In this document: in pieces, positions 12,052-39,403 of the stretch | Layout: each line of letters opens with the position of its first letter | Numbering within the stretch: the first letter of the stretch is position 1 | NCBI GenBank assembly: GCA_964597995.1 | Contig: CAZRAC010000003.1 | Span: 1 to 59,923 of the forward strand | Origin: an uncultured Syntrophaceae bacterium | GTDB taxonomy: Bacteria; Desulfobacterota; Syntrophia; Syntrophales; UBA4778 | DNA length: 59,923 nt | Direction of reading: 5' to 3' | The notes under the pieces: model-generated | The model's database searches: none | Told to the model about the DNA's origin: nothing | Seen by the model: the letters and a program-made list of their open reading frames with translations, nothing else | Made by a program: the position numbers and the translations under genes

Positions 12052-12177
12052 TGACCTCTGATCCTTGCTGGATATCAGTGCCAGCGTTCGGTAACACCTA
12101 TTTATGATCCAACGATCCTTTTTTGACCACCTCCTGGGTAACATTTAATTTGAGGCAATTCGTGGAGCTGAAATAGA

Positions 12178-12205
12178 TTGACAAGAAAAAAAAGTTTTCT
12201 ATAAT
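12178..12205 (+). promoter_or_regulatory. Consensus sigma70 promoter of the yqeY-dnaG-rpoD operon
   Basis: TTGACA-16 nt-TATAAT, 80 nt upstream of yqeY. Confidence 0.85.
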
Positions 12206-12285
12206 TAATCGTTTTCGTATTGTATTTTTGTCGTACTTCTAAAAATACCTGATCCATGTAAGGGTCAGACAGGTGAGGTTCTACC

Positions 12286-12732
12286 GTGGGTATAAAAGCG
12301 CAACTCGAAAGTGACATCATTGCAGCCGCTAAGGCGAAGGACAAACTGAGGCTTTCCGCTCTCCGGATGGTCAAGACGGCGATGCACAACAAAGAGATAG
12401 ACCTGAAGAGGGATCTGACGGAACCGGAAATGTTGCAGCTCCTCTCATCCCTCGCTAAACAACGCGCTGATTCCATCGAGCAATTCAGGAATGGCGGCAG
12501 GATGGACCTGGTTGAGAAGGAGGAGGCGGAACTTAAGATTATCAAAGGTTTTATGCCTGAGCAGATGTCCGAGAAAGACATCGAAGAGGAAGTCGGAAAG
12601 GCAATCGCGGAGGTAGGCGCCGTCGGGCCCAAGGATATGGGCAAGGTGATGAAGGCCCTGATGCCCAAAATGGCCGGCAAAGCGGACGGGAAACTCGTCA
12701 GCGAACTGGTGAAAAAGAGGCTCTCTGCGTGA
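12286..12732 (+). CDS. yqeY: GatB/YqeY domain protein
   Basis: GTG start; KQRADSIEQFRNGGRMDL..E, KDMGKVMK..GKADG signature; upstream of dnaG. Confidence 0.92.
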   Translation: MGIKAQLESDIIAAAKAKDKLRLSALRMVKTAMHNKEIDLKRDLTEPEMLQLLSSLAKQRADSIEQFRNGGRMDLVEKEEAELKIIKGFMPEQMSEKDIEEEVGKAIAEVGAVGPKDMGKVMKALMPKMAGKADGKLVSELVKKRLSA

Positions 12733-12969
12733 GCATGTCTGCTCTGATGTAAGATTTGGGACTCCGAGGTCGTCGAGTACCGACGAGTTGTGGTTATTGT
12801 AAACATTGATTGTATTCCTAATTTCTCGGGTGGAATTGCTTAATTGCCTGTGTTAAAAGACGTAGTTTGGGTTTTTGCGGCTCTGTCCTTTCTACGATGA
12901 GAGCTTCGTTACATCCGGGCTGGGAAAGTCTTTCTGTTGTGCTCAAGCTGGATGATGGGGAACCACCCT

Positions 12970-14757
12970 ATGGGTTTTGTTCGTTCTGAGGCAGAGGAAG
13001 TCAAGAGAAGGACGAACATCGTCGATGTCGTATCAGAATATGTTCCTCTCAAGAAATCCGGGGTCAACTATACCGGTCTCTGTCCTTTCCATAAGGAAAA
13101 GACACCTTCTTTCTCGGTGAATGAAGACAAGCAAATCTTCTACTGCTTCGGCTGCGGGGAGGGTGGTGACGTATTCGCTTTTATCATGAAAATCAATGAC
13201 ATGAGCTTTCCGGAGGCGCTCAGGTACGTTGCGGGAAAGGTCGGGATAAGTCTTTCTAAGGAATACAGGGGCGTAGGGAGTAGTGCCGGGAAGAGCCTGC
13301 GGGAGGAAATTCTCAGGGTTAACGGAATGGCAGCGGACTACTATGCCGGGAATCTTTTGTCCGTTGCGGGGGAAGAGGCCAGGGTTTACCTTAAACGAAG
13401 GGGTCTCCGGGAGGATGTGGTCAGGACATTCCGGCTGGGATATTCCCTCCCCGGATGGCACAATCTCAATGGTTATTTCGAGGGTAGGAAGGTTTCCTCG
13501 GGATTACTCGAGAAGGCCGGCCTCGTGATAAGAAGAGATGACGGTGCTTATTATGACCGCTTCAGGGGAAGGTTGATGTTCCCGATCGAGGGTGTCAACG
13601 GAAACGTGGTCGCCTTTGGGGGGAGGTCACTGGGGGATGAAGTCCCCAAGTACCTTAACTCGCCCGAATCCCCCGTTTATGTCAAAGGGAGGAACCTCTT
13701 CGGCCTGAGCAGGGCGAAAGAAGAAATCCGTCGTCACAACGAGGCGATAATAGTAGAAGGATACTTTGACCTTCTCCAACTCTGGAACGCCGGCATAAGG
13801 AACGTCGTTGCCACCCTTGGGACGGCACTGACCGCGGATCAACTCAGTCTGTTGCGCCGTTATACGAGGAACGTCGTTCTTCTGTTCGATTCCGACGAAG
13901 GGGGAAGGCATGCGATTGAACGAAGCCTGAAGCTTTTTGTTGCGGAGAAGATACATGCAAAGATCGTAATCCTTCCGGAAGGTTACGACCCGGACACCTA
14001 TGTTTTGAAGGAAGGAAAAGAGGCCTTGGCGGGTCTGATCTCCAAATCACAATCCATGATAGACTATTACATCGACCATATCATCGGAGCTAAAAAAGGT
14101 TTGGAAGACCGGCTGGAGACGCTCGGCCGGGCCGTAGGTTTCATCGTTCAAGTAGATGATGTAAAATTAAGGGATATAATGATGACGCGGGTCTCAGAGC
14201 GACTCAGGATTTCCGAAGAAATTCTTAGAACCGAGATCCGCAAGGCGATTTCGTCAAAAGAGGGCAAGCCCCGGGAAAGAGGCGAGGTTTTGCAGCCTTT
14301 GAGGTCCCGGAAAGCCGACCCGATCGAGCTGAATTTCATCCATCTTCTCGTGGAGCACCCTGAATGGCATAGGGCAGTTCAGGAGGAAAAAGTTCTGGAT
14401 AATCTGCTGAGCAGTGAACTGAGGGCTCTGGGCCAGTATATTCTTGAAGAATCCCGGAGAGGAGAGAAGATTGACGTCAATATGGTCGTCGACCGCGTCG
14501 ACGACGAGGAGATGAAAAAAAAACTGTTCAGACGTTTCATGGAGGGGGTCTATCATGATGCGGGGATCGCCGAGAAAGAGTTTACGGATACAGTTTTGAA
14601 GATAAAGAGACGATGGCTTAAACAGCGAAGAAAATTGCTGGAGATGGAACTCGTAAAGGCACAGGAAGACAAGAACCGTTGCGACCTCCTGCTTGGCGAG
14701 CAGCAGCGGTTGGTCGAGGAAGAAAAAGAATTATCATTCAGTATCAGGGAGCATTAA
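12970..14757 (+). CDS. dnaG: DNA primase
   Basis: [16 protein letters not shown] zinc finger, [31 protein letters not shown] and FDSDEGG. Confidence 0.97.
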
Positions 14758-14759
14758 AA

Positions 14760-16514
14760 ATGCGAAAGAGTATGCATTCAGACGAGATAAAGAAATTGAT
14801 TTCCCTGGGAGAGGAGAAGGGATTCTTGACTTACGACGACGTTAACGACATCCTGCCTTCCGATGTGACTTCTCCGGAAGAGATCGACGACATCATCATG
14901 CTCTTCGGCGAGAAGAACATCGATATCATAGACACGGACAAAGGTGAAAAGATAGTCCTCAAGAAGACGGCCGAGGAAATCGCCGAAGGGAAGGAGGAGG
15001 AAGAAGACCTCTCCGCCCTTCTGACCACGGCGGGAAAGACGGGCGATCCGGTGAAGATGTACCTGCGCGAGATGGGCGTAGTATCTTTGCTCAATCGCGA
15101 GGGCGAAATTGAGATCGCAAAGAAGATTGAGGAAGGTGAAAGAGAAGTCATGGAAGCGGTTTTCAGCGTTGCCACTTCCGTGAAGGATGTCATCGACATC
15201 GCCAAGAAGCTTCGTAGCGAGGACCTGCGGATCAAGAATGTCGTTGACAACCTCGAGGATGAAGACGGGTTCGTCGAGGAGGATATGCACCGGGAAAGAG
15301 TCCTGGAACTCATCGATAAGATTGCCCGGATCGAGAAGAGGAACGACACGCAGAGGAAGAAGATTGCCGATAGGTTCTCGACTGCAGAGGAAAAAAAGGC
15401 GGCAAAACAGGAGTTGGCCAAGAACACCAAGAAGATTGTCGAGCTTTCCCGGGAGATCAAGTTCAGCAAGAAGCAGATCAACCGCATGGTGTCAAGACTG
15501 AAAGACGCGGCGAATGAAATCAAGAAGGCCGAGGAGAAAGTCCTGCTGTGTAAGGATCGGACGGGTATGACCATCAAAGAAATGGAGAAGACCGTCGCTG
15601 AGATGAACCGGAATCCGGATAAGGCAGGCAAGATCGCGCGAGAATTGAGGGTTTCCATAAAGCGGATGAAGGAGTGCGAGGCAGCGATCAAGGAATGTCG
15701 GATAGTCACCAGGAAAGTTACGGCGGGAATCGGGCTTCCGGTCCCTCTTCTGAAAAACGTGGTTGCAAGGATAGAGGAAGGAGAGACGAAGGCCAACGAG
15801 GCCAAGAAAAAGCTGATAGAAGCCAATCTCAGGCTTGTGGTCAGCATAGCGAAAAAATATACCAACAGGGGCATGCAGTTTCTCGACCTCATCCAGGAAG
15901 GCAACATCGGTCTGATGAAGGCAGTCGATAAGTTCGAATATCAGCGCGGCTACAAGTTCTCGACTTATGCGACATGGTGGATACGCCAGGCGATCACCAG
16001 GGCGATTGCCGACCAGGCGCGGACGATCCGGATTCCGGTCCATATGATCGAGACCATCAACAAGCTCATCAGGACATCCCGCTATTTAGTGCAGGAATTA
16101 GGCCGAGAACCAAACCCGGAAGAAATCGCGGAAAAGATGGAGTTCCCCCTCGAAAAGGTCAGAAAAGTCCTGAGGATTGCCAAAGAACCTATTTCTCTCG
16201 AGACGCCCATAGGCGAAGAGGAAGACAGTCATCTGGGTGATTTCATAGAAGACAAGAAGATCATGTCACCCTCCGACGCCGCCATCAGCATGGACCTTGC
16301 CAAACAGACGCGAAAAATCTTGGCGACACTGACACCGCGGGAGGAAAAGGTCTTGCGGATGCGTTTCGGGATCGGCGAGCGCTCCGACTACATGGAAGAG
16401 GCCATAGACGACTTAGGCGCGACACTGGAGCGCACTAGGCAGATCGAGGCGAATGCACTGAAAATGTTAAGAAATCCGTCAAGGCGGCGGGAACTCAAGA
16501 TGGTCGTGAAATGA
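14760..16514 (+). CDS. rpoD: RNA polymerase sigma70 factor with an atypical region 4.2
   Basis: Regions 1.1/1.2 ([11 protein letters not shown]), 2 ([66 protein letters not shown]) and 3 are canonical; follows dnaG. ATG 14772 is an alternative start. Confidence 0.96.
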
Positions 16515-16632
16515 TCTTGTCAAAAATTCTTGACAAAAAGGATGAATGAGAATTACAAGAACAACTCACTCGTTGCGCCGTGAGATACACGGTATAAACG
16601 ATGATGATGCAGTGAGTGCGATGTTCATGAAC

Positions 16633-16705
16633 GGGCCCATAGCTCAACTGGAAGAGCCACCGGCTCATAACCGGTAGGTCCCTGGTTCGAACCCAGGTGG
16701 GCCCA
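16633..16705 (+). tRNA. tRNA with CAU anticodon, most likely tRNA-Ile2 (lysidine type); CCA not encoded
   Basis: Cloverleaf: GGGCCCA/TGGGCCC acceptor stem, GCTC/GAGC D arm, ACCGG-CTCATAA-CCGGT anticodon arm, CCTGG-TTCGAAC-CCAGG T arm. Position after rpoD matches ileX-type synteny. Confidence 0.92.
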
Positions 16706-16793
16706 CTATCAAGCGCGAATTGCGAGGTCCTGGTTCAAGATGCCTTTAAAAGCATATACTGTACAATCAGGATGCCCGTCTGGGTATGGTCTG

Positions 16794-16858: not shown

Positions 16859-17578
16859 TTGAAAGAGGATCTTCAGCATTTGATTTCGCTACAGAGGATT
16901 GACGCCAGCCTGGCAAGCGCCAGTATCCAGAAGCAGGAAGTTCCAGGAAGAATAGCCCGCCTTGACCAAGATTATGACTTTCTCAGGGAAAGGGCAGATG
17001 AAGGAAAACGGCGGCTCGATGAACTCCTGAAGGAACACAGAGCGAAAGAAGACAGTCTGAAGATGGGCATCGAGCATCTAAAGAAAACTAAAGAGCGCCT
17101 CCTGGAAGTGAAGACGAACAAGGAATATCAGGCGATGCTCAAGGAAATCGACGGCATCGTCAAGAAGAATGAAGAAATCGAGGATGAGATAATTTCGAAG
17201 CTCGAAGACATCGATGCCGCGAGGAACAATCTCAAGGTAAGAGAAGCGGAACTGGCGGAATTCCGGCTCCGGTATGACAAGGAGAGGAAAGACCTTGAGG
17301 GTGAGATGAGCAGGATCGACGGTGAAACCACCCGCCTGATGAAGGATGTAGAAAGGGTAAGGGGGAAGATAGACTCTGATATTCTCAAGCAGTATGATAG
17401 AATAAAGGCAAAGCGGAACGGCAGTGCCGTGGCCCCGGTCTGGAAAGGGGTGTGTGAAGGTTGTCACATGAACCTGCCTCCTCAGATGTGCAATGAATTG
17501 CAAAAATCGGCAGAAATCATGCAGTGCCCTTTTTGCAGCCGGATCATTTACTGGGACGACAGGGGAGAAAATGGCTGA
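16859..17578 (+). CDS. Coiled-coil protein with a C4-type zinc ribbon (DUF164 family)
   Basis: TTG start 7 nt after AGGAGG; long coiled coil; CEGCHM..CPFCSRI. Confidence 0.9.
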   Translation: MKEDLQHLISLQRIDASLASASIQKQEVPGRIARLDQDYDFLRERADEGKRRLDELLKEHRAKEDSLKMGIEHLKKTKERLLEVKTNKEYQAMLKEIDGIVKKNEEIEDEIISKLEDIDAARNNLKVREAELAEFRLRYDKERKDLEGEMSRIDGETTRLMKDVERVRGKIDSDILKQYDRIKAKRNGSAVAPVWKGVCEGCHMNLPPQMCNELQKSAEIMQCPFCSRIIYWDDRGENG

Positions 17579-18006: not shown

Positions 18007-18458
18007 GTTGGAGTAGACGAGATGATCGCCGGTCCGCTTGGGGTGGGCCGGAGGAAAGTCCGAGCTCCACAGGGCAGGATGGTCGCTAACGGCGACTGGG
18101 GGTGACCCCAAGGAAAGTGCCACAGAAAAGATACCGCCCACCGGCTGCAAGCTGGGATTCGGGTTTGGAATCGCCGAGTTTCGGTTAGTTTTGAATTCTG
18201 AACTCTGCGGTGATGACCGCGGTGGGTAAGGGTGAAAAGGTGAGGTAAGAGCTCACCAGTTTCCTGGGTGACCGGGAAAGCTTGGTAAACCCCATCCGGA
18301 GCAAGACCAAATAGGAGGACGCTTGAGGGCTGCCCGTCCGATGTCCTCGGGTAGAGTCGCTTGAGGCACCGGGCAACCGGTGTCCCAGAGGAATGATCAT
18401 CGCCCTTCAACGGGTGACCGTGAAAGGGAACAGAACTCGGCTTATCGGCTGCTCCAAC
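18007..18458 (+). ncRNA. rnpB: RNase P RNA (bacterial type A) with an expanded P12
   Basis: GGAGGAAAGTCCGAGCTC, GAAAGTGCCACAGAAA, GGTAAACCCCATCCGGAGCAAG, AGAACTCGGCTTAT; the 5' and 3' flanks pair (GTTGGAG/CTCCAAC). Confidence 0.97.
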
Positions 18459-18494
18459 ATCAAACACTCAGTAGAAACGACGAACTGATCTGAG

Positions 18495-25239: not shown

Positions 25240-27831
25240 ATGACTCCATCTATGGAAAATAAAAGAATAATTCCTATATGGTTGGCGACCGTCATCGTCA
25301 TCTTGATGGTAATCCTTTTTTCCATGCTCATAAATCGTGCGCGGGAAAAGGAAATCGTCGAGCGGTTCAGCCGTCAGCAAATGGCCATAGCCAAGGGGTT
25401 GGCCGCGGGGATCGAAGACCTTATCGCCGACGTGGGAAAAAGTATGATGATCCATTCCCTGCGGCTGACCAGCGGGCGGAAGGCGATCGTCTCCTTAAGA
25501 GAAGATGTCAGGGTAATCTTTGACAGCTTAGGTGCCAAGGTGAAGTTCGTCGCGGCAGACGGCGCAGACGGTAGCCCTATTGTCTATCCCTCTGACTACC
25601 GGCAGGCCTTTTTGACTAAGAGGCCTGAGATGCAGGCACTGATGAGAGAGGTGAAAAGGACTGGGAAGCCCCATGTCGGCGATTTTCTAAGAAAAGAAGG
25701 AAATGTCGGTGCTGAAAGAATCGGCGAGGACGAAACACTGGTAGTGGTCGCGGTTCCGCGGTTTGGTCAAGACAGGGAGGTTATCGGCGCCTTTTATGCC
25801 GCCCTATCTCTTTCCACCGTCGTCGACAGGTATATTTTGCCGGCGAAAGATGAATTTTCTTGCGAGGTCTGGCTGGTAGACGAAAAGGGGATGATCGCCT
25901 TCCATACCAACGGGCATCTGGCGGGTCGAGAGGCGGATGTACTTGAGACGGAGCAGCCGTCAGGAGGTCTCTCCCTGAAGAGTAGGATGATGGCCGGGGG
26001 CGAAGGCATAGGTGAGTATCGGTTGCTTCGGGGAAAAGGCCGCGAGGAAAGGCAGATCGTCGCCTTTTCGCCGGTCGGGCTCGACTCGAGAAAGTGGTCG
26101 GTGGCAGTCAGTCTCCCGTACCAGGCAGCGGTATCCCACTTGAAAAAAACGTTCGTCATCTTGATGCTGGAGGCCCTTGTTCTGATCGTTACAGCCGTCG
26201 TTGGGGCTGCGATGATTTTCTATACCAGCAGGCGGCGCCTTGTCTTGGAACAGGAGTTGAAGCGGTTCAAAGAACGGGATGATTTGCAGGAGAAGCTTGC
26301 CAGAGAGAAACGCACTATGGAGGGGATCATTGAGGGTTCTCCTATACCCACTTTTGTCATCGACCGGGACCACAAGGTCATTTTCTGGAACCGGGCCTGT
26401 GAGGAGTTGACGGGGTGCCGGAGCGTGGAAATGATAGGGACGGACAAGCAGTATATGCCCTTTTATCCCGAGAAGCGGCCGGTGATCGCCGATTTGATCG
26501 TAGATAATGACTTTGAGGGCCTGGATAAGTATTACGGGAAGAAGCAGGTTCAGAAGTCGTCGGTGGTGGAGAAGGCATACGAGGCGAGAGATTTTTATGA
26601 GAATCTGGGCGGTCGCAGGCGGCACCTTTATTTTCTCGCGGCGCCCATCTATGATGAGAACGGCCAGATAATCGCGGCGATCGAGACACTCCAGGATGTG
26701 ACCCGAGAGAGGGAGATGGAGTTAGCCCTGAAGGAATACGCCGAGACACTGAAGAACGAACTCTACGAGAACATTAAGCTAAAAAAGGACATAGAGGAGC
26801 TTTACAACTATCTTCAGTTCATCCTGGAAAGTTCCCCGGACCGGATATTCGACGTGACGAGCGATGGAACGATCAATTTCGTCAGCCGCAGCCTAGACTC
26901 CGGCACAGGAGCAAAGCAACTTCAAGGGAGGCATTTTACGGAGTTTGTGGCGCCCGAGCACAAAGAGTTCCTCATGAAAAGGTGGGAAGAGATCAAAGGA
27001 GGTCAATACCATCCTTTCGAGATAGAGGCGACAGCGAGAGACGGGACGAAACGAAACCTGTTGATCACCCCAAGGCCTATCAAGGGAACGGACCGTTATC
27101 TGTTCGTCCAGCGGGATATCACTGAATTCAAGGACCTGGAGAAGAAATTTTACGACAGCCAGAAACTCGCGGCGGTGGGACAACTCTCGGCAGGCATCGC
27201 CCACGAGGTGAGGAACCCGCTTTCGTCGATCAAAATGAGCCTTCAGATCCTGCAAAAGCGACTTCGCCCGGAAGGCAATGACCTAAAGAGGTTCAAGATT
27301 GCCGAGAAAGAAGTGGAGCATCTGGAAAAGATCGTCAGTGACATACTGCTCTTCGCTAAACCCATGGAACCGGACATGAGGCCGGGAGACGTCAACTCCT
27401 TCATCGACAGTTCTTTGTTGATGGCGGAGAAAGAGATATTGGAAAAGAAGATCGAGGTCCGCGCCGATTACGACAGCGATATCCCGCAGGCAAACTACGA
27501 CCCCGGGATGCTCAGGCAGGCGCTCCTGAACCTCTACCTAAACGCCATAGATGCGATGGATGAAGGAGGAGTACTAACCATCTCGACACGTTTTGTCAGG
27601 AAAGGTGATGGTGAATGGGTGCTGATAGAGATCGAGGACAACGGGTCCGGTATCGACGAAGAGGACATCCCCCACCTCTTTAACCCGTTTTTCACTCGGA
27701 AGAAGTATGGGACCGGGTTGGGATTGGCACAGGTAAAGAAAATCATCGACCTCCATCGGGGTACAATAGAAATCGTCAGCGTGAAGGGCCGGGGGACGAA
27801 GGTGTCTGTTGCGCTACCGGCAGGCGGGTAA
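25240..27831 (+). CDS. Sensor histidine kinase (TM-Cache-TM-PAS-PAS-HisKA-HATPase)
   Basis: H box AGIAHEVRNPLSSI, N box NLYLNAIDAM, G boxes EDNGSGI and GTGLGL; two PAS-like segments. Confidence 0.95.
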   Translation: MTPSMENKRIIPIWLATVIVILMVILFSMLINRAREKEIVERFSRQQMAIAKGLAAGIEDLIADVGKSMMIHSLRLTSGRKAIVSLREDVRVIFDSLGAKVKFVAADGADGSPIVYPSDYRQAFLTKRPEMQALMREVKRTGKPHVGDFLRKEGNVGAERIGEDETLVVVAVPRFGQDREVIGAFYAALSLSTVVDRYILPAKDEFSCEVWLVDEKGMIAFHTNGHLAGREADVLETEQPSGGLSLKSRMMAGGEGIGEYRLLRGKGREERQIVAFSPVGLDSRKWSVAVSLPYQAAVSHLKKTFVILMLEALVLIVTAVVGAAMIFYTSRRRLVLEQELKRFKERDDLQEKLAREKRTMEGIIEGSPIPTFVIDRDHKVIFWNRACEELTGCRSVEMIGTDKQYMPFYPEKRPVIADLIVDNDFEGLDKYYGKKQVQKSSVVEKAYEARDFYENLGGRRRHLYFLAAPIYDENGQIIAAIETLQDVTREREMELALKEYAETLKNELYENIKLKKDIEELYNYLQFILESSPDRIFDVTSDGTINFVSRSLDSGTGAKQLQGRHFTEFVAPEHKEFLMKRWEEIKGGQYHPFEIEATARDGTKRNLLITPRPIKGTDRYLFVQRDITEFKDLEKKFYDSQKLAAVGQLSAGIAHEVRNPLSSIKMSLQILQKRLRPEGNDLKRFKIAEKEVEHLEKIVSDILLFAKPMEPDMRPGDVNSFIDSSLLMAEKEILEKKIEVRADYDSDIPQANYDPGMLRQALLNLYLNAIDAMDEGGVLTISTRFVRKGDGEWVLIEIEDNGSGIDEEDIPHLFNPFFTRKKYGTGLGLAQVKKIIDLHRGTIEIVSVKGRGTKVSVALPAGG

Positions 27832-27841
27832 CAATAGAGGG

Positions 27842-27899
27842 TATACGGTGAAGGGCAAACAGTAAACGGTGGTTTATGGGGTGAACGGAGCAACGGGTT
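27842..27899. repeat. Degenerate 7-bp-periodic intergenic repeat
   Basis: TATACGG TGAAGGG CAAACAG TAAACGG ... CAACGGG directly after the kinase stop. Confidence 0.5.
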
Positions 27900-27977
27900 G
27901 AGATGACATGAAAAATGTCTTTCAACTTTTTGTGAGTTCGTCGCCGCTTATTCCAACTGCTCACTTTCAGGGACGTT

Positions 27978-29348
27978 ATGGCCAAGATCATTGTGATTGA
28001 CGATGACAGGTCGATCAGTGAATCCCTCGAGTTGTATCTCTCGGAGGAGGGGCATGAGGTAATGACGGCCAATACAGGAACGGACGGCCTAAACTTGGTC
28101 CTCCAGACGTCGCCGGACATCGTCATCCTGGACATCCGACTGCCCGACATCGACGGGTTTACCGTCCTTGAAGACCTGAAAGAGGAGAACGTGGATGCCA
28201 AGGTGATAATGATAACCGCCCACCACGACATGGAGACCACGATCAAGGCCATGAAGGAAGGGGCCTTTGACTACATCCATAAACCCATAAACATAGATGA
28301 ATTGGACATCGCTATCCAGAAGGCCATCAATACGTTGGAGATGGAGAAGAAGATCAACGGCCTTCTCACGGAACCATCCCGGAGCTTCAAGGTCGGCGAC
28401 ATAATCGGCACCGGGAAGGCCATGCTGGATATCTTCAAAGTAATCGGCGTGGTCACCCAGAGCAAGACCACCGTCCTTATCCAGGGCGAGAGTGGAACCG
28501 GCAAGGAACTGATCGCCAAGGTGATCCACAACAATACTTCTCCCACCGAGCCTTATATCGCCATAAATTGCTCGGCCATCGTAGACACCTTGCTCGAGTC
28601 GGAACTCTTCGGGCATGAGAAGGGGTCTTTCACGGGGGCCATCAACCGGAAGCCGGGGAAGTTCGAACTTGCCCGCCATGGCACCGTCTTTCTGGATGAG
28701 ATCAGTGAGATGTCCCTGAACCTCCAGGCAAAACTCCTCAGGGTTCTCCAGGAGATGGAATTCGAGCGGGTGGGCGGGAAAGACCGCGTCAAGGTGAACG
28801 CAAGGATAATCGCCGCCACGAATAAGGACCTGAAGACCCTGGTCGAGGAAGGTAAGTTCAGGGACGACCTGTATTATCGCCTCAACATCGTCACGATCAA
28901 CATCCCTCCCCTCAGGGAGAGGAGGGAGGACATCCCCTTGCTCGTCGATTATCTGCTGAAGAAGATAAACCGGGATCTCCACAAGAACATCGTCGGCGTT
29001 TCGAAAGAAATGATGGACGTCTTCATGAAATACGGTTGGCCCGGTAACGTCCGTGAACTCGAGAATATCCTTGTACGTGCGGCCGTCGTCGCCAAAGGGC
29101 AGGTGCTCGGGCGCGAGGATTTCCCCGATTTGCTGGGTAGCGCGCAGGTACCGAAGGCACCGGCGGCGCTTGCCGGGGAAGAAGAGGAAGGGACCGGTTT
29201 TGAGACCCTTGACGAGATAGAGGAACGTCATATCCGCAGAGTCATCGCCAAGGTGGGCAGGAACAAAGGTGAAATCTGTGAGATCCTGGGTATATCACGC
29301 CCTACCCTCGAAAGAAAACTTGAGAAATACGGTATCCGTTTCGATTGA
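27978..29348 (+). CDS. NtrC-family sigma54-dependent response regulator (REC-AAA+-HTH)
   Basis: LDIRLPD receiver, QGESGTGKE Walker A, ESELFGHEKGSFTGA, FLDEISE, WPGNVRELEN, LGISRPTLERKL HTH. Confidence 0.96.
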   Translation: MAKIIVIDDDRSISESLELYLSEEGHEVMTANTGTDGLNLVLQTSPDIVILDIRLPDIDGFTVLEDLKEENVDAKVIMITAHHDMETTIKAMKEGAFDYIHKPINIDELDIAIQKAINTLEMEKKINGLLTEPSRSFKVGDIIGTGKAMLDIFKVIGVVTQSKTTVLIQGESGTGKELIAKVIHNNTSPTEPYIAINCSAIVDTLLESELFGHEKGSFTGAINRKPGKFELARHGTVFLDEISEMSLNLQAKLLRVLQEMEFERVGGKDRVKVNARIIAATNKDLKTLVEEGKFRDDLYYRLNIVTINIPPLRERREDIPLLVDYLLKKINRDLHKNIVGVSKEMMDVFMKYGWPGNVRELENILVRAAVVAKGQVLGREDFPDLLGSAQVPKAPAALAGEEEEGTGFETLDEIEERHIRRVIAKVGRNKGEICEILGISRPTLERKLEKYGIRFD

Positions 29349-34978: not shown

Positions 34979-37900
34979 CTACAGGGCTGCAATCTGTGCA
35001 ATGACCTCTTCATTGGTGAAGCCGTTCAAATCGACGGCGTTCATGCGACACGATGCGGTACAGACGCCGCACCCCTTGCAGAGCACTGTGTTGACCTCCG
35101 CCACCCCTTCCACGGGATTTACGGCGATCGCCCCGAACGGACAATTCTGTTCGCAGAGCCCGCAACCTGAACAGCGTTCCTTGATTACGTAAGCCGTTTT
35201 CCCTTCCGCTTCGATGAAGTCCTTCGTCAGCACTGTACACGCCCGGGACACGGCGGCATTCGCTTGGACGATCGTGTCTTCGCTGAGTTTGGGGGCATGA
35301 GCCATCCCGCACATGAAGACGCCGTCGGTAGCAAAGTCCACGGGCCGCAACTTCACGTGAGCCTCAAGGAAGAACCCGTCCTGATTGGTGGGCACCTTTA
35401 GCATCTGACCGATGGCGGCGTTTTCGGGGTTCGGCACCGTACCTACCGAGAGGGCAAGCAGGTCTGCCGGCAGTTCCACCGACCCGTTGAGAATGGGGTC
35501 AAAGGCCCGGACGACCAGTCGGTCCCCAGCCTGGCTTATCTCCGGCTTGCGGTCCTCGTCGTAGCGGATGAACTTGACGTTGAGTTCCCGCGCCTTCTTG
35601 TAATAGTCCTCCTTCAACCCGAAGGTGCGGATATCACGGTAGATGATAGTCACATCTTTGTTCGGGTCCATCTCTTTGAGTTTCAGGGCGTTTTTCATCG
35701 CCTCCGAACAGCAGTACCGGCTGCAGTACGGCCGTTCTGGCGTTCGAGACCCCACACACTGGATCATGACGATATGGGACGCCTGAACTGCTTTATCATC
35801 ACGCTCCGCAATCATTTTTTCCAGGTTACGCTGGGTAATGACATTGGGGGACTGACCGTGGAGATACTCGTTCGTTTCCAGCTCATAGGCCCCCGTCGCC
35901 ACCACTACGACCCCGTGCTCGAACTGCTGTTCACCGTCCCGGGTTTTTATGGTGGTCTTGTAGTTGCCGATGAAACCCTCGATCTTGACGATCTCCGCAC
36001 CGGTGAACACGTGAATAAGTTTGCTCGCCTCTACCTGCCCTAAGAGCCCCGCCAGGTGCTTCTTCGTGTCGAGACCTTCCAGGGTGTAGTACAGATCCCG
36101 GTAATTACCCCCCAGATGAGGCTTCTTTTCGACGATGTACGATTCGAAGCCCTGTTCGGCGAGAGACAAGGCCGCCGTGATCCCGGCCAGTCCGCCGCCG
36201 ATGATCATCGTCGCCTTATTCACCCTCAGTTGGCCCGGTTTCAGCGGTTGCAGGAACTGGGCCTTGGCCACCGCCATCCGTACCAGGTCCTTTGCCTTTT
36301 CCGTCGCCTTTTCCGGCTCGTTCATGTGAACCCATGAATCCTGGTCGCGGATGTTTGCCATCTCGAACAGGTAGGGATTAAGTCCAGCCTTCTCGCAGTT
36401 TTCCTGGAATAGCGGTTCATGGGTCCGGGGAGAACACGAAGCGACGACTACCCGCGTGAGCTTGTACTCTTCGATCACCTCGGCCATCTTCACCGCCGTG
36501 TCCTGTGAGCAGGTGAAGAGATTATCGGCCACGTACACGACATTCGGTAATGTCTTGGCGTAATCCCGCACTTCCGGGACATTGACCACACCCCCGATGT
36601 TGATCCCGCAATGACAGACAAAAACGCCGATCCGGGGACCTATCCCTCGCAGGTCTTTCTCCATGGGCAGTTCTTCTTCTACGATCATCGTGCCCCGGCG
36701 TTCGGCGATGATACTCGAGGCACAGGCGGCGGCGCCGCTCGCCTCCATGACCGTCTCGGGGATGTCTTTTGGACCGCCGAAAGCACCGCAGACAAACACC
36801 CCATCCCGTGTCGTCTTTACCGGATTCTCGAGGTCGGTGGCACAGAAACCGTGATCCTCGAGCCCGATCCCCAGGGCCGTCGCCAATTCCCGCGCCTCGT
36901 GGGGTGGGGTGAGACCGACCGACAGCACCACCATGTCGAATTCTTCTTCTACCAGCGTACCGTCCTCCTGCACGTACTTGACGAGCAGGTTCTTCGTCTG
37001 CTGCAACTCCTTGATAGTGGAGGGGATGGAACGGATGTAGCGTATTCCGTACTCGTTCTTCGCCCGATTGACGAACCGGTCGAAGTCCTTACCGTGCGCC
37101 CGGATATCCATGAAGAAGATAGTCGGTTCCAGCTCTTTGACGTGTTCTTTCCCGATAATCGCTTCCTTAGTGGCGTACATACAGCATACGGAAGAACACC
37201 AGCTGTTTCCGCAGGCCGTGTCCCTCGAACCTACGCATTGGATGAAGGCGATTTTCTTCGGTTCCTTCCCGTCGGACAATCTTTGGACGTGCCCGAAATA
37301 GGGACCGGAGGCGGAGAGGATGCGCTCGAACTGGATACTCGTGACGACGTTGGCGTATACACCGTACCCGTACTCCGACCGGAGGGCTGCATCGAAGGTC
37401 TCGAACCCCGGTGCGGCGATGATGGCTCCTACCTCGATCGTTTCTTCTTCGAAGGTATCTTCATGATTGATCGCCTGGGCGAGGCAGGCCTCAACGCACT
37501 GGTAACATTCCGAGCAAATACCGCAACTCAGGCAGCGTTGCGCCTCCCGCACCGCCTCTTCTTCGCTGAAGCCGATCCCCACTTCGCGGAAATCGACTTT
37601 TCGCTCTTCCGGCTTGACATGGGGGTACTTCACCCGGCTGCTTTTGGGAACACGGGAGGTATCGCCGGGGTCGGCAAGTCCCTGCGTCCAATCCCGCTCC
37701 CGGCCCGCCTTGATGTCTTCCCCGCGGAGATAGCGATCGATAGACCTGGCGGCCTCTTTTCCCGCGTATACGGCTTTAACTACGGTCTGGGGGCCGGTCA
37801 CCACGTCTCCACCGGAAAACACCCCAGGGCCATCGGTAGCGAAGGTTACGGGGTCCACATCGATATTGTTCCATTTGTTGACGGAAATCCCGCTTCCCTC

Positions 37901-39403
37901 GGTGAGGAAGGACAAATCCGCTTCCTGCCCGATGGCGGGGATCACGGCGTCGCATGGGACGATGAATTCCGAGCCCTTGATTTCGATGGGGCGCCTCCGC
38001 CCGCTTGCGTCAGGTTCTCCCAGTTCCATGCGGGTACACTCTATACCCGTGACCTTGCCGTTCTCACCGATGATGCGTTTCGGCGCGACGAGGAATTCCA
38101 TCCGCACTCCTTCTTCCAAGGCTTCCTCGATTTCTTCGGGCGACGCCGGCATTTCGGCGCGGGACCTACGGTACAGGATGAAGACATCCTTCGACCCCGT
38201 CCTGATCGCCGTGCGGACGGCGTCCATGGCCACGTTGCCGCCGCCGATCACGGCTACTCTATCGCCGAGATACACCTTCTCCCCCAGGTTTATCCGTTGG
38301 AGAAAGTCTACGCCGTGGACCACGCCTTGCAGGTCTTCCCCCGGCACATTCAGTTTGCTGCTGCGCATCGTCCCGCACCCGATGAACACGGCATCGTAAT
38401 CTTTCTTTAGCTGATCAAAGGAAATATCCTTCCCGATACGGGTGTTGAGATGGATCTTTACGCCCAGGTCCTCGATCACCTTTATCTCTGCCCGCAGTAC
38501 GTCTTTCGGCAAGCGGTACTCGGGGATTCCCACGGCCAACCACCCACCGGCGACGGGCAGGGCTTCGAAGACGTCCACTTGATAACCCTCGATGGCGAGG
38601 TAATAGGCGCACGTCAGCCCGGCGGGACCCGCCCCCACGACAGCTACCTTCTTCCCATTGCTTTCCTTCTTCTCGGGGAGGTAGCGGGTTTCATCCTTCA
38701 AGTCAAGGTCGGCCACGAACCTCTTCAGATGCATTATGTCTATCGGCTCGTCGACATCACCCCTCTTGCACACCGACTCACAGGGATGGTTGCAGACCCG
38801 GCCGCATACGATCGGGAACGGGTTGTCCTCTTTGATGAGTTTTAAGGCCTCCTTAAACTTACCCGCGGCGATCAGCGCCACGTATCCCTGGACGCTGATA
38901 TGGGTCGGACAGGCGGCCTTACACGGCGACGTACCCCGTTTGTCGATGGCGAAGCCGCTGGGGATGGCCTGCGGAAAGTGACGATAGATGGCCTGCCGTT
39001 CCGACAGTCCTTCGTTGAAGTCCGACGGGATGTTTATCGGGCATACCTTCGCACAATCGCCGCACCCCGTGCACTTGTCCAGATCCACATAACGGGGGGC
39101 CCGCGTCATCTTCACCCGGAAATGACCGGCTTCTCCTTCCACGGCCGTTATCGTCCGCCGGGTGAGGATTTCTACATTCGGATGGCGGCCGACTTCTACC
39201 AGCTTGGGGGATAGTATACAGGCAGAGCAGTCATTTGTGGGAAAGGTCTTGTCGAGCTGAGCCATAACCCCGCCGATGCTGATGCCCTTTTCTACGAGGT
39301 ACACCTTCATGCCCGAATTGGCGAGATCCAATGACGCCTGGATGCCGGCGATGCCGGCCCCCGCTACCATCACTGCCCCGATTTTTTCCTTATCTTTTGT
39401 CAC
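34979..39403 (-). CDS. hdrA: Large HdrA (HdrL type): HdrA modules with an inserted GltD-like NAD(P)H module
   Basis: GAGIAGIQA..DKTFPTNDC, GAGPAGL, GGGNVAMD..YRRS, QCVGSRD..CSSVCC, CHCG.NI, QCVGSR..CSRYCC, terminal ferredoxin; 1474 aa. Confidence 0.93.
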   Translation of the reverse strand: MTKDKEKIGAVMVAGAGIAGIQASLDLANSGMKVYLVEKGISIGGVMAQLDKTFPTNDCSACILSPKLVEVGRHPNVEILTRRTITAVEGEAGHFRVKMTRAPRYVDLDKCTGCGDCAKVCPINIPSDFNEGLSERQAIYRHFPQAIPSGFAIDKRGTSPCKAACPTHISVQGYVALIAAGKFKEALKLIKEDNPFPIVCGRVCNHPCESVCKRGDVDEPIDIMHLKRFVADLDLKDETRYLPEKKESNGKKVAVVGAGPAGLTCAYYLAIEGYQVDVFEALPVAGGWLAVGIPEYRLPKDVLRAEIKVIEDLGVKIHLNTRIGKDISFDQLKKDYDAVFIGCGTMRSSKLNVPGEDLQGVVHGVDFLQRINLGEKVYLGDRVAVIGGGNVAMDAVRTAIRTGSKDVFILYRRSRAEMPASPEEIEEALEEGVRMEFLVAPKRIIGENGKVTGIECTRMELGEPDASGRRRPIEIKGSEFIVPCDAVIPAIGQEADLSFLTEGSGISVNKWNNIDVDPVTFATDGPGVFSGGDVVTGPQTVVKAVYAGKEAARSIDRYLRGEDIKAGRERDWTQGLADPGDTSRVPKSSRVKYPHVKPEERKVDFREVGIGFSEEEAVREAQRCLSCGICSECYQCVEACLAQAINHEDTFEEETIEVGAIIAAPGFETFDAALRSEYGYGVYANVVTSIQFERILSASGPYFGHVQRLSDGKEPKKIAFIQCVGSRDTACGNSWCSSVCCMYATKEAIIGKEHVKELEPTIFFMDIRAHGKDFDRFVNRAKNEYGIRYIRSIPSTIKELQQTKNLLVKYVQEDGTLVEEEFDMVVLSVGLTPPHEARELATALGIGLEDHGFCATDLENPVKTTRDGVFVCGAFGGPKDIPETVMEASGAAACASSIIAERRGTMIVEEELPMEKDLRGIGPRIGVFVCHCGINIGGVVNVPEVRDYAKTLPNVVYVADNLFTCSQDTAVKMAEVIEEYKLTRVVVASCSPRTHEPLFQENCEKAGLNPYLFEMANIRDQDSWVHMNEPEKATEKAKDLVRMAVAKAQFLQPLKPGQLRVNKATMIIGGGLAGITAALSLAEQGFESYIVEKKPHLGGNYRDLYYTLEGLDTKKHLAGLLGQVEASKLIHVFTGAEIVKIEGFIGNYKTTIKTRDGEQQFEHGVVVVATGAYELETNEYLHGQSPNVITQRNLEKMIAERDDKAVQASHIVMIQCVGSRTPERPYCSRYCCSEAMKNALKLKEMDPNKDVTIIYRDIRTFGLKEDYYKKARELNVKFIRYDEDRKPEISQAGDRLVVRAFDPILNGSVELPADLLALSVGTVPNPENAAIGQMLKVPTNQDGFFLEAHVKLRPVDFATDGVFMCGMAHAPKLSEDTIVQANAAVSRACTVLTKDFIEAEGKTAYVIKERCSGCGLCEQNCPFGAIAVNPVEGVAEVNTVLCKGCGVCTASCRMNAVDLNGFTNEEVIAQIAAL

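Follow-up and report, generated by a model that had tools for sequence, protein, structure and literature searches.

Drift and repeated loss of the −35-reading module of the primary sigma factor across the order Syntrophales, in which consensus promoters persist

The stretch of DNA analyzed here (the window) comprises 59,923 nucleotides of contig CAZRAC010000003.1 (assembly GCA_964597995.1) from an uncultured Syntrophaceae bacterium and carries the rpoD gene of that organism within a yqeY-dnaG-rpoD operon followed by a tRNA-Met gene. The subject is the primary sigma factor RpoD and its region 4.2, the helix-turn-helix (HTH) that in other bacteria reads the −35 promoter element and that is strongly divergent in this protein. 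The rpoD start codon, ATG, lies three bases past the dnaG stop codon. In a one-genome-per-species scan of 80 loci, made up of 50 Syntrophales loci (among them Syntrophus buswellii DM-2 [L019] and many Smithella) and 30 outgroup loci from Myxococcota, Desulfobacterales, Desulfarculaceae, and Desulfatiglandales, dnaG was found linked to rpoD in 46 of the 50 and 29 of the 30, respectively. This conserved synteny marks the Syntrophales genes as orthologues of canonical rpoD and not as paralogues. The preliminary description, made from the letters of the DNA, had called regions 2, 3, and 4.1 near-canonical, and this was borne out: regions 1.1 to 4.1 are canonical, and the Pfam domains r1_1 (66.9 bits), r1_2 (44.7 bits), r2 (85.1 bits), and r3 (104.7 bits) all score normally and over their cutoffs. 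Judged by domain content and synteny, on which its assignment to group 1 rests, the window gene is the dnaG-linked orthologous primary sigma factor of a Syntrophales bacterium.

The last 100 residues of RpoD were aligned with HMMER to solved sigma70 chains, and substitutions are given in Escherichia coli numbering. Positions 16386..16514 (+) of the window encode D543 to K584 and the stop codon. A one-residue deletion and the substitutions R584L, I587T, G577I, K593N, R596K, K597M, and H600N had been listed for this segment, and the alignment reproduced all of them, with the gap falling after "DY." Further changes (L573M, V576A, K578D, Q579D, F580L, D581G, and V582A) amount to a rewritten first helix, and the tail is also altered, reading SRRRELK... 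versus the canonical SRSxxL.... The recognition helix retains E585, R586, R588, and Q589, so that three of the four canonical −35 contacts (R584, E585, R588, and Q589) are kept, the fourth being L584. In E. coli and Thermus aquaticus, R584 contacts position −31. The Pfam domain Sigma70_r4 (PF04545) is still recognized in the window at 39.8 bits over profile positions 2 to 49 (cutoff, 24.1), which is 30 bits below the score of outgroup RpoD (69.2). Structure prediction added little. An AlphaFold2 model of the full protein, built with a 44-sequence Syntrophales alignment, had a mean predicted local distance difference test (pLDDT) score of 61.8 and was unusable, with even the invariant region 2 below 50; a model of the sigma-4 domain alone (pLDDT, 76; predicted template-modeling score, 0.39) merged both HTH helices into one, and a Foldseek search of the PDB with the latter returned meaningless matches only (template-modeling score, ~0.3; root mean square deviation, 16 Å).

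Selection within the window's clade was compared among nine species with 77 to 99% amino acid identity by Nei-Gojobori counts of nonsynonymous (pN) and synonymous (pS) differences per site. Synonymous sites are saturated (pS, 0.7 to 0.85) except in the comparison with L090, a locus from an independent ENA assembly, and the pN/pS values are accordingly relative rates and not true dN/dS. The ratio was 0.02 in regions 2 to 4.1 and 0.21 to 0.23 over residues 541 to 555, where region 4.2 forms its first helix and turn, the latter value resembling that of the non-conserved region of the protein (0.16 to 0.21). For the recognition helix (residues 556 to 575), it was 0.005 to 0.07, with zero amino acid changes relative to L090 at a pS of ~0.5. 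Throughout the clade this helix follows the pattern [LV]ERT[RK]QIEANAL.., with position 584 either L or V. Ratios this low indicate that the recognition helix is maintained by selection and that only the first helix is relaxed in this clade.

A sequencing or assembly artifact, or else a decaying pseudogene, would account for an odd region 4.2, and the unusual sequence is itself the sole point in favor of such a reading, whose chance of being correct we regard as negligible. The rpoD reading frame is intact, and the low pN/pS of the recognition helix is not that of a decaying gene. The protein encoded at L090 (P0001, representing a cluster of 25 sequences) is 99% identical to the window RpoD and has an identical C terminus, although the two DNAs carry many synonymous differences (pS, 0.2 to 0.5); region 4.2 is without an amino acid change between them. 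A divergent region 4.2 is also present in the complete genome of the cultured S. buswellii DM-2. These results refute the artifact and pseudogene readings. A compensated frameshift concealing a canonical region 4.2 was considered separately and rejected, because in seven Syntrophales 3' ends both alternative frames were rich in stop codons and lacked TRERIRQIE.

The divergence is not particular to the window. A noncanonical region 4.2 was found in all 50 Syntrophales loci, whereas the 30 outgroup loci are essentially invariant. Column entropy in the recognition helix was 1.96 bits among 47 Syntrophales sequences versus 0.00 bits among 29 outgroup species, and that in the first helix and turn was 2.36 versus 0.17 bits. 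In regions 2, 3, and 4.1 of Syntrophales, entropy was only 0.11 to 0.18 bits (0.18 in region 4.1), which is tighter than in the outgroup. The best 120 database homologues (67 to 99% identity; those with names are Syntrophales or Syntrophaceae) all have a divergent region 4.2: they are nearly invariant through RMRFGI[GS][ED] and thereafter differ from the canonical sequence and from one another. As a wider measure of conservation, 50%-identity cluster representatives were drawn from 1.8 billion proteins and the best 150 were inspected; [TS]RER[IV]RQ.. was present in 139, 6 were truncated, and the 5 that deviate are P0262, which stands for a separate lineage, two sequences resembling those of Syntrophales, and two point variants. 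By these sequence comparisons, the divergence of region 4.2 in the window is far beyond chance. The preliminary description had named the sharing of the sequence by close orthologues, together with normal transcription of TTGACA promoters, as grounds for refutation; sharing was indeed found, yet it makes the case broader and not ordinary. Relaxed selection, proposed there as the consequence of a second primary sigma factor, finds support across the order, where region 4.2 is hypervariable and the HTH has been lost in several lineages, while in the window's own clade it holds for the first helix and fails for the recognition helix.

Two observations from the survey of representatives concern sequences outside this group. 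P0262 and P0271 form a second, unrelated RpoD-like lineage with a degenerate region 4.2 (RLRFGITEGAEGIIERVEDEDGETEGVITFDPRALIRARMSARKRRKSSVE) and are at most 49% identical to anything else; their locus (L091:10001-11707; NCBI GCA_964505185.1, on a 482-kb contig) is not dnaG linked, and being unlinked, the gene may be a paralogue. The cluster representative P0207 (985 amino acids) is an otherwise canonical RpoD that carries the R584L change of the window together with R586G in an unrelated background.

Within Syntrophales, the variants form a graded series from a remodeled to a lost HTH. Scores for Sigma70_r4 step down from the outgroup and the window to 32.8 bits in L003 and to 20 to 24 bits in Smithella, S. 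buswellii, and L002; the orthologues of these three fall below the gathering cutoff and match only profile positions 2 to 18, which belong to region 4.1. In place of the HTH, these lineages have an acidic, proline-containing stretch followed by a basic tail. Length is nonetheless kept, the segment after RMRFGI measuring 44 to 49 residues in HTH-less lineages versus 47 or 48 in the outgroup, while it carries a mean charge of about −9 in Smithella-like sequences versus about 0 in the outgroup. Over the last 13 residues, the charge averages +4.6 to +6.8 in Syntrophales, the highest value being that of the HTH-less lineages, versus +2.7 in the outgroup. On a neighbor-joining tree computed from all sequence upstream of region 4.2, Syntrophales are monophyletic, L002 is sister to the window's clade, and the whole HTH is missing at no fewer than four or five separate points (Smithellaceae, Syntrophus, L002, L017, and L027).

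Promoters were predicted from conservation. In the window, the sequence TTGACA-N16-TATAAT sits about 80 nt upstream of yqeY (Table 1), and it is kept before yqeY-dnaG-rpoD in six relatives with L or V at position 584 despite diverged spacers. The HTH-less S. buswellii and L002 retain TTGACA-N16-TAnnnT before the rpoD operon as well. Between the rpoD stop codon and tRNA-Met, an exact TTGACA was found in 49 of 49 Syntrophales loci (26 of 26 in which the helix is kept and 23 of 23 in which the HTH is lost), and across the order a TATA-type −10 element follows 15 to 17 nt after it. Within the window's clade, cTTGACAAA-N17-TAnnn[AT] precedes tRNA-Met in nine of nine members. Intergenic TTGACA was observed 50 times versus 19 expected in helix-like Syntrophales and 19 times versus 6 in tail-only Syntrophales; in Smithella-like loci it was barely enriched (30 observed versus 23 expected), 12 of the 30 being the tRNA-Met promoter, and additional conserved TTGACA or TTGAAA-N17-TAnnnT sites were found in these loci. 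Intergenic −10 hexamers were not enriched for an upstream extended −10 TGn in any group, the TGn frequency (0.039 to 0.046 for the Syntrophales groups versus 0.028 for the outgroup) not exceeding that of coding-sequence controls. This absence, together with the conserved TTGACA elements, speaks against a regime of −35-independent, extended −10 promoters.

Some details of these promoters vary among lineages. Most Syntrophales (L021 to L044 and others) have a 15- to 16-nt spacer in the tRNA-Met promoter with a conserved TGGG just upstream of TATAtt, and the window's clade and the outgroups have a 17-nt spacer, the −10 element of the window's clade being weak (TAACTA or TTACAA). Two orthologous promoter-like TTGAAA-N17-TA...T sites, in which A replaces C at −35 position 5, are conserved across many Smithellaceae (for example, L035:5848, L028:13398, and L031:16964). 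The −35 element of the tRNA-Met promoter is also the right arm of an inverted repeat that is perfect in the window, where it places a TTGACA on each strand, and conserved only in part in L090; as read from the sequence, it might serve as a dimeric operator or form a hairpin that overlaps the −35 element. A 234-amino-acid open reading frame (ORF) on the strand opposite yqeY has no Pfam match and is probably spurious; it hides the yqeY promoter region when intergenic DNA is defined by naive ORFs.

Because lineages without the HTH keep canonical TTGACA/TATAAT promoters, −35 recognition in the order cannot depend on the HTH of RpoD itself, and something other than RpoD region 4.2 probably reads TTGACA in Syntrophales. 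Relaxed constraint on the −35-reading HTH of RpoD is clearly indicated, and the tree suggests that the relaxation came early in the evolution of the order, at its base. Thereafter, the first helix drifted everywhere, and the recognition helix was either remodeled or lost outright, the latter at least four separate times; a lost HTH is replaced by a linker that is acidic and contains proline, followed by a basic tail, the length staying about equal. The window's clade has kept the helix under strong purifying selection, retaining E585, R586, R588, and Q589 while R584 gave way to L or V, and from these kept contact residues and this strength of selection we infer that the helix there most likely continues to dock on −35 DNA. 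The most economical cause would be a redundant −35 reader, and the likeliest candidate for it another member of the sigma70 family whose region 4.2 is intact and whose presence would free the HTH of RpoD from constraint. That region 4.2 of the window represents one local outcome of a process affecting the whole order, in which such a redundant reader made the HTH dispensable, is the explanation we favor, at about an even chance of being right.

A number of points weigh against this explanation. When hidden Markov models for regions 2 to 4 and for region 4 alone were run against all ORFs of the 60-kb window and of loci L001 to L080 (±10 kb around rpoD), they recovered rpoD only; a second sigma70-family gene is thus absent from the window and from the 10 kb on either side of rpoD in the 80 loci, and the redundant −35 reader is purely inferred. 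The extreme constraint on the rest of RpoD argues for a principal sigma factor and not for a retiring paralogue. The neighbor-joining tree is rough, synonymous saturation among most relatives makes the pN/pS values relative rates, not true omega, the promoters are predictions from conservation, and both AlphaFold models are uninformative on the fold of region 4.2 in the window.

Much of the same evidence could be read to mean that RpoD is the sole housekeeping sigma factor and that TTGACA is read in trans by a −35-binding adaptor or another part of RNA polymerase. An adaptor of this kind would bind either region 4.1 or the conserved basic tail at the C terminus, as a host-encoded analogue of the appropriation of sigma by AsiA and MotA of phage T4, and we consider it unlikely. 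The S-R-[RK]-R motif and the segment length of 44 to 49 residues are kept in nearly all Syntrophales, even in HTH-less ones; the very strong constraint on the rest of RpoD, the TTGACA before tRNA-Met that is invariant regardless of HTH state, and the failure to find a second sigma factor within ±10 kb of rpoD in the 80 loci all point the same way. A second sigma factor is nevertheless the simpler explanation, no candidate adaptor was identified, and free-standing region-4-like ORFs were found neither in the window nor in the 80 loci within ±10 kb of rpoD. We know of no cellular general −35 adaptor of the AsiA/MotA type. The proposition that Syntrophales are without a second sigma factor with canonical region 4.2, and that a host-encoded −35-binding partner or another RNA polymerase module on the basic tail of RpoD reads TTGACA, is one we hold to be doubtful; if true, it would be the cell's own, constitutive version of what phages do in sigma appropriation.

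Two further causes suggested in the preliminary description fare worse. Region 4.2 might have been retuned so that the holoenzyme recognizes another −35 sequence, as could be supposed from the L or V that occupies position 584, the −31 contact, in the window's clade and from the TTGAAA that some Smithella-like promoters have in place of TTGACA. The promoters of the clade itself speak against such altered specificity, since the TTGACA-N16-TATAAT of the rpoD operon in the window and its six relatives and the cTTGACAAA of all nine tRNA-Met promoters are unchanged and keep a perfect TTGACA; even its fifth base, C, is retained in proteins' genomes with L or V at residue 584. Also against it are the TTGACA of every one of the 49 Syntrophales tRNA-Met promoters and the sister lineages that have the same promoter sequences and differ greatly in region 4.2; altered specificity is on these grounds very improbable. 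Escape from an anti-sigma factor or phage protein, in which region 4.2 diversifies in an arms race with AsiA-like or Rsd-like proteins of phage or host that bind region 4, seems very improbable too. Confinement of the changes to a short, surface-exposed segment of an otherwise frozen RpoD is what an arms race might produce, but we found no positive evidence for one. The pN/pS is 0.2 in the fastest segment, still lower in the recognition helix, and nowhere above 1, an anti-sigma gene was not seen nearby, and the exchange of the HTH for low-complexity acidic sequence in several lineages represents outright loss, which an arms race does not predict, and not escape.

The coordinates of the operon, of the parts of region 4, and of the neighboring features are collected in Table 1. 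Adjoining rpoD and tRNA-Met is a gene for a CT398/HP0958-like coiled-coil and zinc-ribbon protein, a family that reportedly binds sigma-54. The same adjacency was observed in 37 of the 50 Syntrophales loci and 10 of the 30 outgroup loci and is thus not order specific. Further downstream lie an RNase H gene and then RNase P RNA. Elsewhere in the window, a dCache/PAS histidine kinase gene is followed by that of a sigma-54-dependent response regulator (Sigma54_activat, 224.7 bits), from which it follows that the organism also uses sigma-54 promoters. A 1,473-amino-acid multidomain flavin/iron-sulfur oxidoreductase is in keeping with the kind of electron-transfer metabolism that a syntroph should have.

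Table 1. Positions of the rpoD operon, predicted promoters, parts of RpoD region 4, and other features in the window
Feature	Position	Strand	Basis or remark
Predicted perfect sigma70-consensus promoter, TTGACA-N16-TATAAT	12178..12205	+	Promoter scan, 12/12 consensus match
ORF of 234 amino acids opposite yqeY	12102..12806	−	No Pfam match
yqeY (GatB/YqeY-like), first gene of the operon	12286..12729	+	Pfam YqeY, 169 bits; gene order same in relatives
dnaG (DNA primase)	12937..14757	+	Pfam Zn_ribbon_DnaG, DNAG_N, Toprim; precise start codon uncertain
rpoD, orthologous primary (group 1) sigma factor, 584 amino acids	14760..16514	+	Pfam r1.1, r1.2, r2, r3, r4; dnaG linkage
Region 4.1, residues 511-540, canonical	16290..16379	+	Almost no column varies across 44 Syntrophales sequences
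Region 4.2, first helix plus turn, residues 541-555; evolves fast and carries the one-residue deletion	16380..16424	+	
Region 4.2, recognition helix, residues 556-575	16425..16484	+	Alignment to solved sigma70 chains
C-terminal basic tail (RRELKMVVK) with stop codon	16485..16514	+	S-R-[RK]-R motif common to nearly all Syntrophales seen
7-bp inverted repeat, TTGTCAA-N6-TTGACAA, right arm being the −35 element	16517..16536	.	Directly after rpoD stop; sequence reading
Predicted tRNA-Met promoter: TTGACA (16530-16535), 17-nt spacer, weak −10 TTACAA (16553-16558)	16530..16558	+	
tRNA-Met (CAT)	16633..16706	+	ARAGORN; Rfam tRNA, 66.8 bits
CT398/HP0958-like protein gene	16859-17578	+	
RNase P RNA	18010..18459		
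dCache/PAS histidine kinase, then sigma-54-dependent response regulator	25240-29348	+	Sigma54_activat
Multidomain flavin/iron-sulfur oxidoreductase	34979-39403	−	Pyr_redox_2, Fer4_20, FAD_oxidored, several 4Fe-4S domains

In the literature searched, which excludes subscription-only articles, no paper was found on the sigma factors of Syntrophales, Syntrophaceae, Syntrophus, or Smithella or on a primary sigma factor without region 4. Canonical group 1 sigma factors such as E. coli sigma70 and T. aquaticus sigmaA (PDB 1KU7) place the HTH of region 4.2 on the −35 hexamer. The window RpoD resembles them in its position next to dnaG, in regions 1.1 to 4.1, and in E585, R586, R588, and Q589; it differs in its one-residue deletion, rewritten first helix, R584L change, and new basic tail and has lost its basic activator patch (K593N, K597M, and H600N), and its sister lineages are without the entire HTH. 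E. coli sigma70 truncated before region 4.2 reportedly still transcribes extended −10 promoters (Kumar et al. 1993), which shows that a primary sigma factor without a −35 reader can work and makes a natural loss plausible. That truncation, however, is laboratory made and requires TGn, whereas in Syntrophales TGn stands at ~4% in all groups and TTGACA is conserved. Campylobacter and Helicobacter have primary-sigma promoters without a conserved −35 box and so provide another case of a lineage-wide shift in −35 use by the housekeeping holoenzyme. There the promoters changed, whereas Syntrophales keep the textbook TTGACA while the reading module of the sigma factor decays.

Phage T4 AsiA and MotA pass recognition of the −35 region to a separate protein docking on the far C terminus of sigma70, which sets a precedent for −35 recognition by a sigma-docking protein. 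Unlike the hypothetical Syntrophales adaptor, that system is phage encoded, remodels an intact region 4, and redirects RNA polymerase to a different DNA motif. Group 2 sigma factors of cyanobacteria and Corynebacterium share the −35/−10 consensus of the primary sigma factor and could supply the kind of redundancy that relaxes region 4.2 of RpoD, but the primary sigma factor of those organisms, unlike that of Syntrophales, retains a canonical region 4.2. In Rhizobium etli SigA, region 4 is reported to confer transcriptional laxity (PMC4943231). Like those of Syntrophales, it is a natural variant of primary-sigma region 4, in this case one that alters the strictness of promoter recognition; its changes are modest and lie inside an intact HTH, without clade-wide decay or loss. 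Each known system thus matches one aspect, and the combination in Syntrophales differs.

Among the protein segments of bacteria, the primary sigma factor's region 4.2, the textbook reader of the −35 element, is one of the most conserved. A whole order of environmentally important syntrophs, the cultured Syntrophus included, has let this module of rpoD drift or vanish, and consensus TTGACA/TATAAT promoters persist in these organisms, the promoter of rpoD itself among them. The lineages of Syntrophales constitute a natural series of region 4.2 variants, from remodeled to absent, that is directly testable in vitro. Either two sigma factors split the recognition of housekeeping promoters in this order or −35 reading has moved to another protein, and either outcome would revise how promoter recognition in Syntrophales is assumed to work and how their promoters are predicted.

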